9,483 bases of DNA from a virus (taxonomy: Duplodnaviria; Heunggongvirae; Uroviricota; Caudoviricetes), in IMG/VR virus record IMGVR_UViG_2778261058_000006, positions 1-9,483 of that record. One strand, written 5' to 3'. The notes under the pieces were generated by a model. It was given only the letters and a program-made list of their open reading frames with translations. It had not been told where the DNA came from and did no database searches. The position numbers and the translations under genes were made by a program. This document shows positions 675-9,043 of the stretch, piece after piece. Position 1 is the first letter of the stretch. Every line of letters starts with the position of its first letter.

Positions 675-863
675 CAACAGAATCCTTCCAGATAAATAGC
701 ACTCCCCTGCTCGGGGTCCATCCCTCTTCTCCCTGCGCGCTACTTAAGAGCCTCGATTCTAGCCGTGAAGACATACCGATCAACAGCAATAAGCCACCTG
801 AATAACAGAATCAGCCAGCCACATCAGTACAACCAGATGCATCATGCTCACCGAAAATAAACA

Positions 864-887
864 ACAAAAAACCCGCCGAAGCGGGTT
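864..887 (-). terminator. Rho-independent terminator downstream of the hok-like gene
   Basis: On the minus strand: 7-bp GC-rich stem AACCCGC/GCGGGTT with TTCG loop, followed by a U-run (complement of the A6 run at 866-871). Confidence 0.6.
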
Positions 888-955
888 AAGTGCGGGTGCG
901 TTGAGGATGCCTGACACATCAGAGGTGGCGAGGGATTTCTCCCCCGCCGGGTCTC

Positions 956-1111
956 TTACTCCTCAGGTTCGTAAGCTGTGAAGACAGCGACCTCCGTCTG
1001 GCCGGTTCGGATTCGTACCTCGCAGAGGTCTTTCCTCGTTACCAGTGCCGTCACTATGACGGTTAAACAGATGACGATCAGGGCGATTAACATCGCCTTT
1101 TGCTGCTTCAT
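956..1111 (-). CDS. hokD: Hok/Gef-family type I toxin (51 aa, single-TM membrane peptide)
   Basis: Translation MKQQKAMLIALIVICLTVIVTALVTRKDLCEVRIRTGQTEVAVFTAYEPEE matches my recollection of E. coli HokD/RelF and is close to HokC/Gef. AAGGAG SD 9 nt upstream of ATG 1111..1109. In-frame upstream GTG at 1138 gives a Mok-like 9-aa extension (MPKGKEKQA). Confidence 0.85.
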   Translation of the reverse strand: MKQQKAMLIALIVICLTVIVTALVTRKDLCEVRIRTGQTEVAVFTAYEPEE

Positions 1112-1380
1112 AGCCTGCTTCTCCTTGCCTTTCGGCACGTAAGAGGCTAATCTTCAGTTGTCGAGACATAAGACTGGCCTCACTTCGATTTATAGTCGGG
1201 TGGGGCTTTTCTCTATCTGCCTTTGGTGGCATGCCCGAGACAGATAGCCTCAAGCACCCGCAGCAATTCTACTTAACTCTCCTTTTCCCGCAAACCGTTT
1301 TTATCCCCAACGGCAATTCGAATACACTACCAGCGCCACCGCCAGTGCAATTCCTACCGTTGTGAATGCTTCAGGCCAGG

Positions 1381-1947
1381 TCATCGTAAAATATCCTCCG
1401 CGCTTATCAGTCCGTTTCGCTTCAGGTAGACCATCGCCTTCTCCGGTAATTTGCAGTCCGGCTTCGCTTTCCTCAATTGGCTAACCAGTTGTTTAATCAG
1501 CATTGTTAATTCCCGTACCTGAACGTCCCTTTTGGTATCCTCATTGGTGAGGATACCATCGTCTTTCCCCTGAAGCATGGCGGCGCAGCAGGCGTTCCAT
1601 GAAATTTCCTGAAGGGAACGACGAATCTGTGTGCTGCATATACTCCTCCCTGACTCCTGGCTGTTAAACCATGTTTCAAATTCCGGCACTACCGTCGCTG
1701 GCGGAGCAGCGTATAGCGGCACGTATATTTCCGGTTCCTTGTCTGCTCCTGGTTGCCCTTCCAGTGAGAATGTCTTTCCGGTAAATCGATTCATATAAAG
1801 CATTGGCTCTGCTTCCAGTGATGCCAGTGCGATACGAAACACATTGGCAAGCAGGCTGTCTGAAGATTGGTTATCGTGCGCCGGGTCGCTCAGGAAACCA
1901 GTGATGAATGATTTAATCTCCGCGTTTTCTCTGGTAATAGTGGTCAT
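1381..1947 (-). CDS. Hypothetical prophage protein (188 aa)
   Basis: ATG 1947..1945 preceded by AGGAGA SD, which lies in the last codons of the upstream gene (stop 1951..1949). Long ORF on the operon strand. Confidence 0.6.
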   Translation of the reverse strand: MTTITRENAEIKSFITGFLSDPAHDNQSSDSLLANVFRIALASLEAEPMLYMNRFTGKTFSLEGQPGADKEPEIYVPLYAAPPATVVPEFETWFNSQESGRSICSTQIRRSLQEISWNACCAAMLQGKDDGILTNEDTKRDVQVRELTMLIKQLVSQLRKAKPDCKLPEKAMVYLKRNGLISAEDILR

Positions 1948-1948
1948 A

Positions 1949-2167
1949 TCAGTTCTCCTTATACGGATTAATTTTATTGTGCAGTGTGTTGAACAACGCC
2001 CATACCACGTCGTTATACAATTCAATAACTGGCTCAATTATTTTCCCGATTGCCCAGACAAAAATTAGCGGGGATATCGGTATCATCAACACGATAAACA
2101 GAATGAGAAACAAAAATTCTGTCGCTCTACTTTTTCGCGGATATTCTTTTCTGAATAATGTAGGCAC
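1949..2167 (-). CDS. Small putative membrane protein (about 72 aa, one predicted TM helix), AT-rich
   Basis: GTG 2167..2165 sits 6 nt after an AAGGAG SD and 1 nt after the stop of the upstream gene. Hydrophobic stretch FLFLILFIVLMIPISPLIFVWAIG. The ORF-track start at 2188 is a TTG inside the upstream gene. Confidence 0.4.
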   Translation of the reverse strand: MPTLFRKEYPRKSRATEFLFLILFIVLMIPISPLIFVWAIGKIIEPVIELYNDVVWALFNTLHNKINPYKEN

Positions 2168-2168
2168 A

Positions 2169-2528
2169 TCACTCTCCTTTGATGCCAATGTTTACAGCCT
2201 GGCAAGCCTCTTTGAGCACCCAGTCAACAGCGTCTTTCCATGCTCCGGTTTCGACTGGCGGATTTTCACGCTTAACCTGTTCATAGAAGCGCACTGCTTT
2301 AATCAATCCTTCTGGTGTCAGTGGCACAGGCGGGGCAGTGAATAACGCCTGAATTTCATAGCTCGGCCTGTCGTTGCAATCCTCTTTTGTCGGTACATAT
2401 TTCCAGTCACCAACCCACGACTCCCCCTGAGAGTCCGTAACGCCTTTTTTCACGTAGCGATATCGCCATGCAACTGGTTTTGCCTGCCCTGCCGTTTCAT
2501 GTCCTTCCTGATAATTAATCTCGCTCAT
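2169..2528 (-). CDS. Hypothetical prophage protein (119 aa)
   Basis: ATG 2528..2526 overlaps the stop of the upstream 58-aa ORF (ATGA). Clean ORF on the operon strand. Confidence 0.6.
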   Translation of the reverse strand: MSEINYQEGHETAGQAKPVAWRYRYVKKGVTDSQGESWVGDWKYVPTKEDCNDRPSYEIQALFTAPPVPLTPEGLIKAVRFYEQVKRENPPVETGAWKDAVDWVLKEACQAVNIGIKGE

Positions 2529-2701
2529 TCATCGCCCCACTCATCACAATATGCTTCGACCGGAGTTTTTCCTGCTTCGTAGTCATCACGCCATGCTTCA
2601 GCATCAGCGGCACTTCCACCGCGTAACTCTGCATAGTCCATTAACAGTTCATGCCATTCTTCAAAACTGACGTTGTATTTAGTTGAACCAAAATCAGCCA
2701 T
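2525..2701 (-). CDS. Small acidic hypothetical protein (58 aa), below the ORF-track length cutoff
   Basis: Hand translation gives MADFGSTKYNVSFEEWHELLMDYAELRGGSAADAEAWRDDYEAGKTPVEAYCDEWGDE. GAGGAAG SD about 9 nt upstream. Start overlaps the upstream stop by 8 nt and its stop overlaps the next ATG (ATGA), filling an otherwise unexplained gap. Confidence 0.4.
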   Translation of the reverse strand: MADFGSTKYNVSFEEWHELLMDYAELRGGSAADAEAWRDDYEAGKTPVEAYCDEWGDE

Positions 2702-2876
2702 TTTGTTCTTCCTCTTCGTCTTTTATTTCGTGATATGAGTAATTGCAGCAGTTAAAGAAAATTTCTTTTGCTTCGTCATGAATTTCATCAGGTGTTGCGT
2801 CATCGTCCACTTCGAATACATCCTCAAAATCTCCACCAGCTATTCCAGTTTCAATAATTATTTTGAACTTTCGCAT
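2694..2876 (-). CDS. Small acidic hypothetical protein (60 aa)
   Basis: ATG 2876..2874 (internal Met of ORF 2694..2957). A GC hairpin lies just upstream; the SD is weak (GGCGG). Confidence 0.45.
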   Translation of the reverse strand: MRKFKIIIETGIAGGDFEDVFEVDDDATPDEIHDEAKEIFFNCCNYSYHEIKDEEEEQNG

Positions 2877-3004
2877 TTCACTACCGCCCTTTCGGGCGGC
2901 CTCCGGATGATTTGAGGGTGCAGGAATCCCTCCGGTTAAGGATTTAATAAAAACCACTTCTGATTTAAATTTTCAGTGTTTTGTTGCCAGGTGATTTATC
3001 GCCT

Positions 3005-3316
3005 TTACGCTTCAGCCTTATTTCGCAACCAGACACAAACCGGGCCATCTTCGGTGTCATGTATTGAACCAATAAACCATCCATCGCCCTCTGGTCGTTC
3101 CGGTTTCCAGGAGGCAATATCGGGACCATCTGCATCAAGATTAAAATCATCTTCATCCATAGTTCTGATGGTCCATTGAAGATTATTTTCCTCCATCCAT
3201 GCGTTAAACTCTTCCGTTGAAATATGTTCTCTACCATCACAGAATTTTTCATATTCAGGATGCGTCCAGCAGCCATATTCATCACGTACTACTGGTATTT
3301 CTTTAATTTCATTCAT
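3005..3316 (-). CDS. Hypothetical prophage protein (103 aa)
   Basis: ATG 3316..3314 with GGGAGAA SD; overlaps the upstream gene stop by 8 nt. Confidence 0.55.
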   Translation of the reverse strand: MNEIKEIPVVRDEYGCWTHPEYEKFCDGREHISTEEFNAWMEENNLQWTIRTMDEDDFNLDADGPDIASWKPERPEGDGWFIGSIHDTEDGPVCVWLRNKAEA

Positions 3317-3563
3317 TTCTGTTCTCCCACGTTTTCAGACTTTCACCACAGAACGGACAAAATGAAACCCGCACTGGTGATTTAGAAAATTCACCGGAAC
3401 GCAACATCACCAAATCAGGGCCGCGAGTTAAACTCTCATTCCAGATTTTGTATATCAGCAGACCTTTTCGCGTCGTGTATTCAGCATCATGCTCAAGGGA
3501 TTTTGCCAGTGCTGCACATGGTTCTATCTTGTTGCCATTAATTTGGCATTTTGGCTCACTCAC
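3309..3563 (-). CDS. Hypothetical small protein (84 aa) with paired Cys motifs (possible zinc ribbon)
   Basis: GTG 3563..3561 with AAGGAGG SD 6 nt upstream; GTGA overlap with the upstream stop. Cys at C-x9-C near the N-terminus and C-P-F-C near the C-terminus. Confidence 0.55.
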   Translation of the reverse strand: MSEPKCQINGNKIEPCAALAKSLEHDAEYTTRKGLLIYKIWNESLTRGPDLVMLRSGEFSKSPVRVSFCPFCGESLKTWENRNE

Positions 3564-4198
3564 TGTTTACCTCCTTTTCGAAGCTGTTCGGCGATATCTT
3601 CGAGAACGCCATCAGAGAATGAGCGGTCAAAATCGCCTTCCGGCGCATTAGCCATAAACTCAGTAGAGGTAAGAATCATCCGGGCAATATCCGCGGCGTT
3701 CTTCGCAGTATCATCAATAAAACCAGCTTCCCAGGCAGCCAGCATTCTGTTCGCCACAAAGTAAGCGCCCTCCTTGCGTGCTTCAGTCTTCACTTCAGCC
3801 AAGAAAGCGTCGGTGGCTGGGGTTTGCGGCATCCTTCCGTCTATTGCGCAGATATACGCATCAGATAGTTCATCCTGCTCGCCATCAAACACGTAGCAAC
3901 TCTGTACGATAAATTTATTCAGCCCCGCATTCTCCGCCGCAAGCGCAGCAAGATTAGTCTCCAGCTCTGCAATGCGTTTGCTTTGGGCTTCCCGTTCATC
4001 CAACAGTGCCAGCACGGTAGCCGGATTGGCTGCTGCTATGAATCGCTTATTGGCGCGATTATCTGGTCCTGAGCATGATGCTATGTAGTAATTTGCGTTC
4101 AGTCCGGCATCAGCAATTAACCCATAATCATCAGAACACCATTCGCCAGGGGTTGCATTTTCTGCCGCCATTCGCAGTGCCTGGTAATTAATGTTGCT
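3560..4198 (-). CDS. Ea22/Ead-like prophage protein (about 212 aa)
   Basis: GTG 4198..4196 with AGGAGG SD 6 nt upstream. N-terminal motif [20 protein letters not shown] is typical of enterobacterial Ea22-like proteins (recalled family knowledge). Overlaps the upstream gene stop by 11 nt. Confidence 0.6.
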
Positions 4199-4931
4199 CA
4201 CTGGTTTCCTCCTGGCAAAGCTGGGCGACAATATCGCGATATTTATTCAGCTCCCGCAGCGCGGCACAGACTCGCTCCCATTTCCGGATATCACTTTTCG
4301 CCCGACGCAGTTCGCGGTTTGCCTGTCGCAGCGATGGCAGAACCAGATTATCCACTCGCTTCTCAAGCGGCTGCACAATGTCCGCCACAGTTTCTGTTTT
4401 AATATCTTCCTGTGTTGCAGCTTCCTGTACTGGTAACGCAACACATGCAGGCTGAGGAAAGGCTTTACCATCAGTTTCCGCTACCGATGCCGCTTTCGGC
4501 TCTGCTGGTAAATTACCGCCCGGCATGCAGTAACGAAATTTACCGTTCTGATTAACACGAATCAGACGACCTTTGCTGATTGCCATTGCCAGCGTTGAAG
4601 CCACTTTGCGGGATGTTGTACCGAACAGCGTAGCCAGTTCATCCGCCGTTTGTGGTCCGCGTTGTTCAATCGTCGCGGTTAAATCGTACTCTGAGATTTT
4701 CGCCACTGTCGCCGTGGTGGTTTCTTCCGGCTGTTCTTCTGGCGCTGGCTGTTCCTGCTGAACGTTGTTATCAGCCACACGCCAGGTGTATACGCTTTTA
4801 TCAACGAAGCCAGCCTTTTTCAGTTCCCACAGCTCGTTCAGTACTTCTTCACGACTGATATCAAGTCGCGCAGCCAGCTCTACCGACGTGGCTTTTCCCA
4901 TCGCTTTCAGTGCGTCAAAAACAGTCTCCAT
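4188..4931 (-). CDS. Hypothetical prophage protein (247 aa) with two winged-helix-like segments
   Basis: ATG 4931..4929 with GGAGG SD about 9 nt upstream (the ORF-track start at 4997 is upstream of this RBS). Function unknown. Confidence 0.6.
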
Positions 4932-4965
4932 TAAAATTTCCTCCCGGTAAAAATTACTTCTCAAC

Positions 4966-5631
4966 TCAAACAAACCCAGCCGCTTTCCGGCGTTCATATT
5001 CCTGTTTCAGTAACTCAATTGGCGTTGGCCCCGACGGGCGTTTGGGTGCCGCCAGTTGTCGCCGGACTGGCGGAACGCTCAGGCCGTTACTAACATGCTT
5101 TGCCCATTTCGTCAGCTGCCGTTCTGCAAGCTGTTTTAATTCCCCTTCGGTCATCTGACGCTCAATCCCCTTATCACGCATCTCGAGGCAAATGTGATAC
5201 AGCACAGGCTGAGACCACGGGTACTTATCACTTCCGTCGTATCGCCAGGACTCATTGCGCCAGCGGCGGTACTCCTCCATCACAGCATCCACCGTCAGAC
5301 CAAATGGATTTGCCCCACTCTCCGAAATCAGCGCCACAAACTCAGCCAGGTCCGGAGGCCATGTTTCACCCGCCCGGCAGCGGTCCATGCACTGGCGGCA
5401 GACCAGCCGGATTTGCTGCTCAGTCATCGCGCCAATCTGTGCAATCCAGAGCTTCGAAGGTGCGGCCCCGTTCTTCTGGGTCCAGCGGTTCGAATAAACC
5501 TCCCCCATGAGTTCCCACAGCTTCCACGCCGTTTCCGTCGCTGATAAATCCGTTTTCACGTTCCCACTGCTCACGTGCTGCCCGAATTTCCTGAACTGCC
5601 CGTGATGCGGTGCCGCCTGGTGCTGCTGCAT
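4966..5631 (-). CDS. Lambda P-like replication protein (DnaB helicase loader)
   Basis: Recalled lambda P shares a YPW-containing segment and a similar C-terminus with this ORF. ATG 5631..5629 has a GGGGGTGA SD-like motif. Start is uncertain; alternatives are 5508 and 5427. Confidence 0.65.
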
Positions 5632-6460
5632 GGCTCACCCCCTTGCTGACTGGTTTAACCTGCGCCCTGACGTGATGTACGTGACGGGCGAATTTCTGCT
5701 CCCACTGAACCTGCGTGAAAACTTTCCCCTCCGCTGCCCAGTAGTCCCGGAAGGCGGCAAGTTCAGCTGGTGTAAATTCCGGCTCCGGCAGAGCCATCCC
5801 CCACAACGCAGCCCGTCGTCGAAAATCCCGTGACGGATGCCAGCTATCGGTCATCGGAAATTTTCCGATGGGCTCGCTCAGGCCATCCAGGAATACAGGG
5901 GATGTTGCCTGTAACGACAAAACTTCCTGCTCACTGGTCGGAGCACTCTCGTGTGCGTTATGTGTGGGGTTTAGATCTTTGGGTTCCTTTGGGTTCCGTG
6001 ATCCGTTTTTGGGTGTCTTTGATGGAAAATTTGGGTGTCTTTGGTTATTTTCCATGCAGAAAAGAGTTCCGTTTTTGGGGCTGTTTTGTGCTGAAACATA
6101 ACCGTTTTTGGTACTGTTTTTATTAACAGCACCAATTTTACCCACCTTTAAAGACTCCCGTTTTTGGGTGTATTCAGGCTCGGCAACACTTTCTTCTACA
6201 CCGATAAGTCGGTACACCACGATTTGCTTTGTTCGGCCTTTTCTCTCACCGGTATCAATAATTAACCCAATCTCCATCAGGTGTCGTAAGCTGTCCTGCA
6301 CAGTCTTTTTGTTCAGTTCCGTTACTTCTGCCAGTGCAGATACAGACGGGTATGCGCACAAATCGGCACCGCACATATCAGCAAGCCAGGTCAATACTGA
6401 CTTACTGGATGAACTGCCGGTTTTCACCTTTTTAGCCCATCGTAGTGCATCGATACTCAT
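5420..6460 (-). CDS. Phage replication initiator (O-like): N-terminal HTH, iteron-encoded linker, DnaT-like C-terminal domain
   Basis: Domain-like layout by eye. Iteron repeats lie inside the coding sequence, as in lambda O. Start is uncertain: ATG 6460, ATG 6523 or TTG 6535. Confidence 0.7.
   Translation of the reverse strand: MSIDALRWAKKVKTGSSSSKSVLTWLADMCGADLCAYPSVSALAEVTELNKKTVQDSLRHLMEIGLIIDTGERKGRTKQIVVYRLIGVEESVAEPEYTQKRESLKVGKIGAVNKNSTKNGYVSAQNSPKNGTLFCMENNQRHPNFPSKTPKNGSRNPKEPKDLNPTHNAHESAPTSEQEVLSLQATSPVFLDGLSEPIGKFPMTDSWHPSRDFRRRAALWGMALPEPEFTPAELAAFRDYWAAEGKVFTQVQWEQKFARHVHHVRAQVKPVSKGVSHAAAPGGTASRAVQEIRAAREQWERENGFISDGNGVEAVGTHGGGLFEPLDPEERGRTFEALDCTDWRDD
5978..6171. repeat. Iteron cluster (putative replication origin) inside the O-like gene
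   Basis: CCGTTTTTGG(G) at 6003, 6069, 6102 and 6159. TTTGGGTGTCTTTG at 6008 and 6031. Tandem TTTGGGTTCC at 5978 and 5988. Followed by a moderately AT-rich stretch at 6111-6150. Confidence 0.55.
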
Positions 6461-6983
6461 ACGAACCCCAGACAGATATTTGTTTATCTGCAAAGTAATG
6501 TTGGTATTGCTGACGATACGCATGCTTGAAAGCAATAGCTTTTTCTATAAGCTCGTCAGTCTCACGTTCCACAACAGCTGGATCCGCAAAAAGCAGCCCG
6601 GACTCCACCACATCGCCATATTCTTTGTTTAACCCGGCGATCATGTACGTAATGCTTTTTCCGTCAGTAATTTCACAATACAACCTGAAATCGCTGATCC
6701 GGATAGCCTCCATAATTGCCGGAATCAGCGCCGTGAATTTTTCCCGCTTATCCCTGGTGTCGATAGCTTTCCAGCGTTCAAATATTTTCACCCGGTTAAC
6801 GCCCAGTGCCCGTTGATCAACCGCGCCATCATCAAACGTGACGCGTTGAACATCAATGTTCGGGCGTTCTTTCAGAGCCCAGAATGCTTCCGTGATTAAT
6901 ATCGTCGCCTGCTCCTGTGTCATTCCTGGTCGGCATACCCAGGAATCCAGAGCCTCACAAGCCTGTTCAGGGGTGATTTTCAT
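6432..6983 (-). CDS. Hypothetical protein in the cII position of the early operon (183 aa); possible regulatory protein
   Basis: ATG 6983..6981 overlaps the 3' end of the DicC-like gene by 17 nt; its own 3' end overlaps the O-like gene. Weak SD; an alternative start is ATG 6923. Confidence 0.5.
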   Translation of the reverse strand: MKITPEQACEALDSWVCRPGMTQEQATILITEAFWALKERPNIDVQRVTFDDGAVDQRALGVNRVKIFERWKAIDTRDKREKFTALIPAIMEAIRISDFRLYCEITDGKSITYMIAGLNKEYGDVVESGLLFADPAVVERETDELIEKAIAFKHAYRQQYQHYFADKQISVWGSYEYRCTTMG

Positions 6984-7195
6984 TGTTCAACCGCCCCGCA
7001 CGCTTTGCCTTACGATATTCGTCATAAACTTTGGGATCGTACTGAAGCTCCCCGCCGGATGCCTCCTGTAGACGCATCGCGCGACCTTCAGGAACCAGTT
7101 CCCCCCATGCAGCAATGCTTGCCAGCCTAACTCCTGCGGCATTGGCAATGCTTTGTTTTGCTGCCAAAAAACGCTATAGCATCAATTTTCAACAT
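6967..7195 (-). CDS. dicC: DicC-like (Cro-analogue) repressor with an apparent +1 frameshift near the 5' end; possible pseudogene
   Basis: Strong AAGGAG SD plus ATG 7195..7193 opens a frame encoding MLKIDAIAFFGSKTKHCQCRRS, then stops. The conserved body (...AAGVRLAS...GRAMRLQEASGGELQYDPKVYDEYRKAKRAGRLNNENHP) is in the next frame, which has a stop at 7176..7174 and only a TTG at 7167 without SD. Confidence 0.6.
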
Positions 7196-7271
7196 ATCGA
7201 GCTCCTTAGATTTTCCTAAGGAAACTAGATCGTAGAGAAACCTAAGTCAAGAAAAATTAGAATTCCCTAAT
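7196..7271. promoter_or_regulatory. Divergent promoter/operator region between the DicC-like and DicA-like genes
   Basis: Perfect palindrome TCCTTAG-N6-CTAAGGA at 7203-7222, overlapping the DicC-like SD. Palindrome ATTAG-N6-CTAAT at 7256-7271, abutting the DicA-like ATG. Extra CCTAAG at 7241-7246. Confidence 0.5.
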
Positions 7272-7679
7272 ATGAAAAACGAAACCTTCGGTGCTCGCCT
7301 CTTACATAGGCGTAAAAAATTAAAACTGTCTCAGGCCGCATTAGGTAAGCTGGTCAAAGTGGCTCACGTAACAATTTCTCAATGGGAAAGAGATGAAACA
7401 CAGCCGGCGGGGAAAAGATTATTCGCACTGAGCCAAGCGCTTCAGTGCTCACCGACTTGGCTTCTTTTTGGGGATGAAGATAAACAACCAGGCGAACCGA
7501 TCCCGGATAATCAGCCAGCCATTCTGACAGAAGATCAAAAAGAGTTACTTCAACTGTTCGACGCACTGCCTGAGTCAGAGCAAAAAGCCCTGTTGTCAGA
7601 GATGCGTGCTCGAGTTGAAAATTTCAACAAACTTTTTGAAGAACTACTCAAAGCTCGCAAAAGAAGCGCAAACAAATAA
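7272..7679 (+). CDS. dicA: DicA-like HTH (Xre/cI-type) prophage repressor, 135 aa
   Basis: N-terminal HTH (LSQAALGKLVKVAHVTISQWER) and a C-terminus resembling recalled DicA. Divergent from the Cro analogue. No SD upstream, so possibly a leaderless-type start. Confidence 0.85.
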   Translation: MKNETFGARLLHRRKKLKLSQAALGKLVKVAHVTISQWERDETQPAGKRLFALSQALQCSPTWLLFGDEDKQPGEPIPDNQPAILTEDQKELLQLFDALPESEQKALLSEMRARVENFNKLFEELLKARKRSANK

Positions 7680-8437: not shown

Positions 8438-9043
8438 ATGGAATTTAAAGATTTACCAAAAGAAATCCAGACAATTGCTGCAACGACTCTCGGTGATAGC
8501 CTGGTGAAAATTGACCCCGCATGCACCAAAAAAGAAACCATCGATAATATGGTTCGTAATGTGCGCAATGCTTTTTCTGGGCTATATGGTTCTGATAATC
8601 AAAAGCAGGAAAGCGATGTTAATGAACGGGTAATTTCTGTTTGCCTGAATGGCCATGTTCTTTCATCAATCAAAACAGAAACAGCGACAGCCATCGATTA
8701 CCTTTGCATTGTACAGAGCCTTTTTGATGCCCTGTTTCGTTCAGTGAATTTAAAAAATGATGCAAATCTGCGAGGGCGCACAATAGCACATTCATATGCA
8801 CATACTTTAGGCTCTGTGGATGTTAAAAATAATACCCTGCAAGTTACTCTCGAACATTCACCGCAAGAGTTGAAAACGGAAAAATACGATGCAAATAAAA
8901 ATAATAACGATAAACCTGATTTGTTTATTATCAGCTCAAAGCTACTGGAAGTCATGAAGAGCGAGCTTGAGAAACACGACATCAAGCCCACTCCTGTATA
9001 TTTACGATGGATAATGAAGATTATTGATGCTTCTCTGCCATAA
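8438..9043 (+). CDS. Hypothetical protein (201 aa), AT-rich accessory gene of unknown function
   Basis: ACGAGG SD about 8 nt upstream of ATG 8438, 22 nt after the ydfC-like stop. Uninterrupted ORF to TAA 9041-9043. Codon usage is visibly AT-rich (many AAA/AAT/GAT), roughly 35-40% GC by eye. No match to anything I recognise. Confidence 0.6.
   Translation: MEFKDLPKEIQTIAATTLGDSLVKIDPACTKKETIDNMVRNVRNAFSGLYGSDNQKQESDVNERVISVCLNGHVLSSIKTETATAIDYLCIVQSLFDALFRSVNLKNDANLRGRTIAHSYAHTLGSVDVKNNTLQVTLEHSPQELKTEKYDANKNNNDKPDLFIISSKLLEVMKSELEKHDIKPTPVYLRWIMKIIDASLP

Follow-up and report, generated by a model that had tools for sequence, protein, structure and literature searches.

A single inserted base in a dicC-type gene of a DicA/DicC-type lambdoid prophage: a probable loss-of-function allele at a possible mutational hotspot

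In the Qin prophage of Escherichia coli K-12, DicA and DicC constitute a bistable switch of the CI/Cro type, and deletion of dicC lowers the proportion of cells in which the dicB promoter is spontaneously and stably on from 1.16% to 0.04%, and also weakens the induction by urea and heat (PMC10448788). In the related CP-933P region the promoter of the repressor gene is the preferred target of repression by the Cro analogue, and YdaT acts as the CII analogue (PMC8630535, PMC9986795), the roles of Cro and CII analogue having been described for the YdaS/YdaT-type pair (PMC8630535). Template-switching at quasi-palindromes is a known source of mutational hotspots in E. coli (PMC7202029, PMC6357072).

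The window, that is, the whole stretch of DNA that was analysed (9,483 bp), is the entire contig NLNZ01000090.1 of the draft assembly GCA_002229985.1, and a literature search found no paper citing this assembly. We consider, with a probability of about three in four, that it carries a real loss-of-function allele of dicC, a gene for a protein of the P22-Cro fold, in a lambdoid prophage of the DicA/DicC type. The lesion is one inserted A, and the same insertion has been found in two other contigs.

The dicC-family gene and its lesion

The genes in this part of the window are arranged in the order dicA-like, dicC and ydaT, followed by a DnaT-like and a lambda-P-like gene (Table 1), and judged from this gene content the context is a lambdoid immunity region, as expected of genes of the DicC/P22_Cro type. 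The assembly index contains the exact 135-aa DicA protein of the window in 10,028 blocks. The 5' end of ydaT (ATG 6983) overlaps the 3' end of dicC by 17 nt, its ATG is preceded by only a weak Shine-Dalgarno (SD) sequence of its own, and ydaT is likely to be translationally coupled to dicC. Matches covering most of the region were obtained in about 1,200 complete E. coli genomes, in which the annotation reads 'Cro/CI family transcriptional regulator' or 'DicC'. In the annotation of the source assembly no gene was called at the dicC position.

Table 1. Position, strand and main characteristics of the features of the dicC-family locus in the window.
Feature	Position	Strand	Description
dicA-type (CI-like) repressor gene, intact	7272..7679	plus	HTH_3 51.9 bits; divergent from dicC
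Shine-Dalgarno AAGGAG	7207-7202	minus	Read from the sequence; conserved in intact homologues; spacing to ATG 7195 of 6 nt
dicC-family (P22 Cro-type) gene, disrupted	6967..7195	minus	229 nt, the intact 228 nt plus 1 inserted base
22-codon ORF and TAG	7127..7195	minus	From native start ATG 7195; stop TAG 7129-7127
Inserted base	7149..7149	minus	A (plus strand: T), between the first and second bases of codon 16, CTT (Leu) being changed to C-A-TT
13-nt perfect inverted repeat GCATTG-c-CAATGC	7139..7151		Made by the insertion; absent from the intact locus L001
Out-of-frame gene body, +1 frame	6967..7167	minus	ORF from TTG 7167 of 66 aa, without SD and without helix 1
ydaT-family gene (CII analogue)	6432..6983	minus	PF06254

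The initial annotation had described a DicC-like N-terminus that is opened by an SD and the ATG at 7195 and stops after 22 codons, with the body of the gene in the next frame, devoid of ATG and SD and closed upstream at 7176..7174, and both observations were borne out when the sequence was read again. The frame opened at ATG 7195 translates as MLKIDAIAFFGSKTKHCQCRRS, in which residues 1-15 are native and identical to those of intact alleles, followed by the out-of-frame residues 16-22 (HCQCRRS). Upstream, TAG 7176-7174 closes the +1 frame, which ends downstream at TGA 6969-6967, and TTG 7167 is its sole start codon ahead of the switch point, with no purine-rich SD. Alignments with three intact homologues (ETEC1738, EDL933 and WAT), and later with 49 further sequences, revealed exactly one indel, an extra A at 7149 (AAAGC[A]TTGCC) that forms the sole gap column, 1 nt away from the switch point near 7150 that had been proposed originally.

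When the inserted A is removed, the product is MLKIDAIAFFGSKTKLANAAGVRLASIAAWGELVPEGRAMRLQEASGGELQYDPKVYDEYRKAKRAGRLNNENHP, of 75 aa, which is identical to 14 gene products in IMG/VR. This repaired product matches the NCBIfam model NF007282 DicC with 167.9 bits over positions 1-75 of 75 (cut-off 130) and the Pfam family P22_Cro (PF14549) with 49.7 bits (cut-off 30.2), and it aligns with the P22 Cro structure 1RZS over residues 1-58 (E 2.5e-7). Because the repaired product matches the IMG/VR products, NF007282 and P22_Cro, the dicC-type match is not a chance resemblance, and on these sequence comparisons the window gene is a member of the DicC/P22_Cro family by descent. The single uninterrupted ORF of about 75 aa, with helix 1 and the helix-turn-helix (HTH), that characterizes this family is absent in the window. 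The 66-aa ORF of the +1 frame matches P22_Cro with 31 bits at profile positions 12-57 only; no record was found for it on look-up, and its N-terminus is present in no product of a 5.8-billion-protein database.

Codon 16 lies within what we take to be the HTH region, in its first helix, according to the P22 Cro fold aligned to the repaired product. Because the frame breaks at this codon within the HTH, the 22-residue product would be unable to bind DNA as a protein. Ribosomes starting at the intact SD and ATG would make the 22-residue peptide and halt at 7127, and the remaining 59 codons would be left out of frame without a credible start of their own. The locus is a frameshifted dicC/cro pseudogene, ordinary in kind, and this is its correct annotation, rather than two small ORFs or a recoding site.

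Several other observations were made around the gene. In the loci L004-L013, at positions 2787-3017 (corresponding to 7195-6967 of the window), a mosaic joint is located inside dicC, with an N-terminal HTH half of the K-12 type (MLKTDALLYFGSKTKLAQAAGIRLASLYSWKGD) and a C-terminal half of the window type, and YdaT is identical to that of the window; therefore, the immunity-specific and the conserved halves of the gene recombine. A consensus scan for promoters and terminators between 6900 and 7400 returned nothing at the thresholds used. By eye, a candidate dicC promoter was seen with TTGACT at 7250-7245 and a weak -10 element. The inverted repeats TCCTTAG/CTAAGGA and TTTCCT/AGGAAA at 7203-7224 overlap the SD region of dicC in the dicA-dicC intergenic space, and from their sequence they are candidate operator half-sites. 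Substitutions are present just upstream of these repeats in the S. flexneri locus L138.

Elsewhere in the window, a toxin-antisense module of the hok/sok type is located on the minus strand at 956-1259, with a match to Rfam sok (RF01794) at 1106-1259 (120 bits) and a Hok-like small ORF that ends at 956. A 201-aa ORF on the plus strand (8438-9043) has no Pfam match on record, and its exact sequence occurs on this contig only in a 153-billion-gene index. Positions 862-5976 are 94% identical over about 5 kb to PP818812.1, recorded as 'Actinobacillus phage vB_Apl-pPE4'; this host label is unexpected for an E. coli-type lambdoid region, and it might reflect contamination or a misassigned host.

Recurrence and possible origin of the insertion

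An exact scan of IMG/VR with the 23-mer spanning the insertion revealed two further carriers of the allele with the inserted base (+A allele), the loci L016 and L017, and a scan that permitted any base at the insertion site gave only these same two, both with A. All genes with the intact 22-mer in the IMG/VR loci were single-frame (123/123), 122 of them coding for 75 aa and one, with an in-frame deletion, for 74 aa. The +A allele was found in none of the 708 complete E. coli genomes carrying the 71-nt stretch, in which the best matches were all 70/71 with one gap, nor in phage records (0/11) or plasmid records (0/3), and the 23-mer gave 0 matches in metagenome contigs. Exact scans of the GTDB species representatives with a 35-mer and the 23-mer returned no homologous match; the lone 23-mer match, in a Bacteroidia MAG, was discarded as a chance match inside an unrelated gene. 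Two truncated 52-aa 'Shigella' proteins (P0039 and P0051) were also rejected as carriers, one being an intact gene that had been called too short and the other a fragment at the edge of a contig.

Each of the three carriers was compared with its nearest intact relative. L016 is free of mismatches to L132 over 6,829 nt and to another intact relative, L118, over 3,286 nt, with a single gap in each case; L017 and L072 are separated by 8 mismatches and a single gap over 1,808 nt, and the window differs from L001 by 7 mismatches and the gap in 741 nt. When the carriers are compared with one another, 17-26 mismatches are found in the same 741 nt. Two SNPs flanking the insertion, at 7201 and 7116, separate the background of L016 from that shared by the window and L017, the latter two being identical from 7585 to 7073 and differing only downstream. 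The origins were counted as two and not as three because the window and L017 may share the insertion by descent. These sequence backgrounds suggest that the identical +A arose at least twice independently and, because a random error or mutation would not strike the same base twice, they also suggest that the insertion site is a mutational hotspot.

A mechanism for such a hotspot can be proposed from the bases around the insertion. Intact alleles have the imperfect inverted repeat GC-TTGcCAATGC, which is converted into GCATTGcCAATGC by the insertion, and the T in the opposite arm of the repeat specifies the A that is inserted. Template-switching during replication would perfect this quasi-palindrome by inserting the A. 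Template-switch mutagenesis is a possible cause of the +A allele, the sequence evidence being no more than suggestive (p about 0.03); of the 667 single-base insertions that the gene could undergo, 22 (3.3%) would create an inverted repeat whose arms measure 6 nt or more. A stronger quasi-palindrome with 9-nt arms in the same gene is not the one that was mutated, and the 40-nt region, folded as DNA, is of ordinary stability whether the A is present or absent.

Other templates were considered and discarded. The mutations predicted by larger quasi-palindromes (TTGGCAGC/GCTTGCCAA; L001, 12-nt arms and 18-nt loop) differ from the one observed, and a direct-repeat template 30 nt downstream (AAGCATTGC) was rejected because its copy in L016 has a G, yet this locus gained an A. 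The palindrome AAGCTT is present at the mutation site in all intact alleles (region 7146-7151 of the window; 1628-1633 of L001) and is destroyed by the +A, a loss that is probably incidental.

That GC^TTGcCAATGC is a genuine template-switch hotspot, at which an A would be gained repeatedly, with loss of the Cro-like half of DicA/DicC, is a tentative proposal that we regard as possible but rather doubtful. If true, hosts would gain a fast, sequence-encoded route by which a toxic cryptic prophage is locked off, and the site would be a natural example of site-specific, possibly quasi-palindrome-templated mutation in wild genomes.

Without any hotspot, the +A could have a single origin by ordinary random mutation and could have been spread by homologous recombination between co-resident lambdoid prophages. 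These prophages are highly mosaic, with a recombination joint inside dicC itself, the window and L017 share an identical tract and differ only downstream of it, and a gene-conversion patch of less than 85 nt could in principle carry the +A into the L016 background. However, the patch would have to be this short, given that L016 differs at both 7201 and 7116, and L016 is otherwise identical to the intact loci L132 and L118 over 6.8 and 3.3 kb. A single origin is for these reasons judged unlikely.

An artefact has also been considered, namely a site-specific short-read library or assembly error at the near-palindrome that would have recurred in several draft assemblies. The three carriers all come from contigs of the draft type, the window itself being one complete short contig of such an assembly; complete genomes with the +A allele amount to 0/708, and the additional base is central in an imperfect inverted repeat. 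Imperfect inverted repeats are prone to template-switch artefacts of the polymerase in vitro. Nevertheless, the insertion site is not a homopolymer, and the identity of L016 and L132 over the rest of their 6829 nt indicates that the assembly of L016 is not generally error-prone. Artefacts of this class usually affect a low fraction of reads and would not be expected to reach the consensus in three separate projects, and a real allele with a frequency of about 0.3% would be statistically consistent with the counts of 0/708 and 2 in more than 122. The sequencing indel that was offered as one explanation in the initial annotation is disfavoured by the identical +A in two other independently assembled contigs; from these sequences the +A is probably not a private sequencing error, and an artefact at this site is considered quite improbable.

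A functional two-frame gene, expressed by +1 ribosomal frameshifting, by transcriptional slippage at T6 (7171-7166) or by initiation at TTG 7167, is the explanation that we find hardest to credit, its probability being very low. The arrangement is present in three contigs, the 66-aa ORF retains its 31 bits on P22_Cro, an AGGAG stands immediately ahead of the TAG stop, and the overlap of the two frames (7173-7130) contains AAAA at 7159-7156, where a +1 slip of tRNA-Lys would give a product of native length (75 aa, FGSK-QSIANAAG). However, the carriers are tip mutants of intact alleles and not a conserved lineage, the IMG/VR relatives being single-frame in all 123 cases and the complete E. coli genomes free of the +A in all 708. 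The AAAA is followed directly by neither a slow codon nor a stop, the next codon being the common ACA. At AGU-UAG no +1 re-pairing is open to the P-site codon AGU, the AGGAG directly adjoins the TAG site, in contrast to its distance of 3 nt upstream in prfB, and a shift at this point would swap the conserved LANAAG for HCQCRRS. Efficient transcriptional slippage is known from runs longer than T6, and initiation at TTG 7167 would occur without an SD, would give a product that lacks helix 1 and is predicted by no gene caller. Slippage of +1 at AAAA, with a native-length product, or at T6 could take place, at most rarely, and neither sequence has the make-up expected of an efficient site. The programmed frameshift originally suggested is therefore left unsupported, with 3 carriers versus 123 intact IMG/VR genes and 708 E. 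coli genomes and with no credible shift site. Homologous prophages with two frames and evidence of translation from TTG 7167 had been named in the initial annotation as observations that would refute its reading of the locus; the former do exist (L016 and L017), yet as tip mutants, and for the latter no evidence was found.

Expected consequence for the switch and other damaged dicC alleles

The reading of the +A as a real loss-of-function allele leads to an expectation about the prophage. Without DicC, the DicA/DicC switch would be unable to latch in the de-repressed state, and a prophage with toxic early genes would stay off; by analogy with dicC of K-12 and with lambda cro, the +A allele would be expected to keep the prophage locked under repression by DicA. 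The idea that an inactivated Cro analogue would bias the prophage toward stable lysogeny had already been put forward, and it agrees with the truncation inside the HTH and, by analogy, with the data on the dicC deletion in K-12 (PMC10448788). With translation ending 144 nt short of the overlapping start of ydaT, the expression of ydaT and of the downstream replication genes would probably be lowered as well.

Other knock-out alleles of dicC were found in complete genomes, each beside an identical DicA allele: a stop at codon 51 (Q51stop) in L143 and L147, and a frameshift by shortening of a run from G6 to G5 in L146. The dicC alleles of these three loci occupy positions about 897-1124 of each locus, and the genomes are rich in IS elements. 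In the protein database, a double-frameshift allele of dicC (P0049), frameshifts at G runs (P0063 and P0064) and an in-frame duplication of 27 nt (P0010) were also detected. Because several independent knock-out alleles have been found, loss or damage of dicC is recurrent, and this recurrent loss is either tolerated in decaying prophages or favoured. Repeated loss of the Cro-like arm of DicA/DicC fits with DicC being the component that enables the spontaneous and toxic switching-on of dicBF.

Comparison with described systems

The gene prfB, which codes for RF2, also has two overlapping frames and a 0-frame stop preceded by an SD-like AGGAG. Unlike prfB, the two-frame arrangement of the window is not conserved among homologues and has no re-pairing P-site codon, the spacing of its SD-like element is wrong, and a shift there would not restore the conserved HTH sequence.

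A resemblance is also found with the quasi-palindrome reporters in thyA and lacZ of E. coli (Lovett laboratory; PMC7202029, PMC6357072), in which an imperfect repeat is likewise converted into a perfect one. As at those hotspots, the base gained is dictated by the other arm, and the same change recurs in independent backgrounds. In contrast to the characterised hotspots, the arms in the window are shorter, just 6 nt with a 1-nt spacer, and the hotspot is a proposed one, 3.3% of random insertions giving an equally good repeat.

With respect to the expected behaviour, the window can be compared with lambda cro-minus prophages and with the dicC deletion of K-12, in which loss of the Cro-type protein likewise leaves repression by CI or DicA self-sustaining and de-repression unlatched. 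Unlike in these two cases, the phenotype ascribed to the window is a predicted one, for a prophage that is known from 9.5 kb and may or may not be functional in other respects.

The closest described gene is dicC of K-12. The window gene differs from it in being broken by the +1 insertion in codon 16 and in having an HTH half of a different immunity type (MLKIDAIAFF...IAAWGE), and downstream of it a full ydaT-dnaT-like-P replication module is found where K-12 has the ydfX/ydfW remnants. Nevertheless, the repaired window sequence shares 86% identity with the N-terminal variant of the K-12 type, and its match to the DicC model extends over the full length. Both genes occupy the same genomic place, divergent from a DicA-type repressor gene and with ydfA/B/C-like genes on the dicA side, and by analogy the intact form of the window gene would be expected to play the same role as in K-12, that of the Cro-like half of a bistable switch (PMC10448788).
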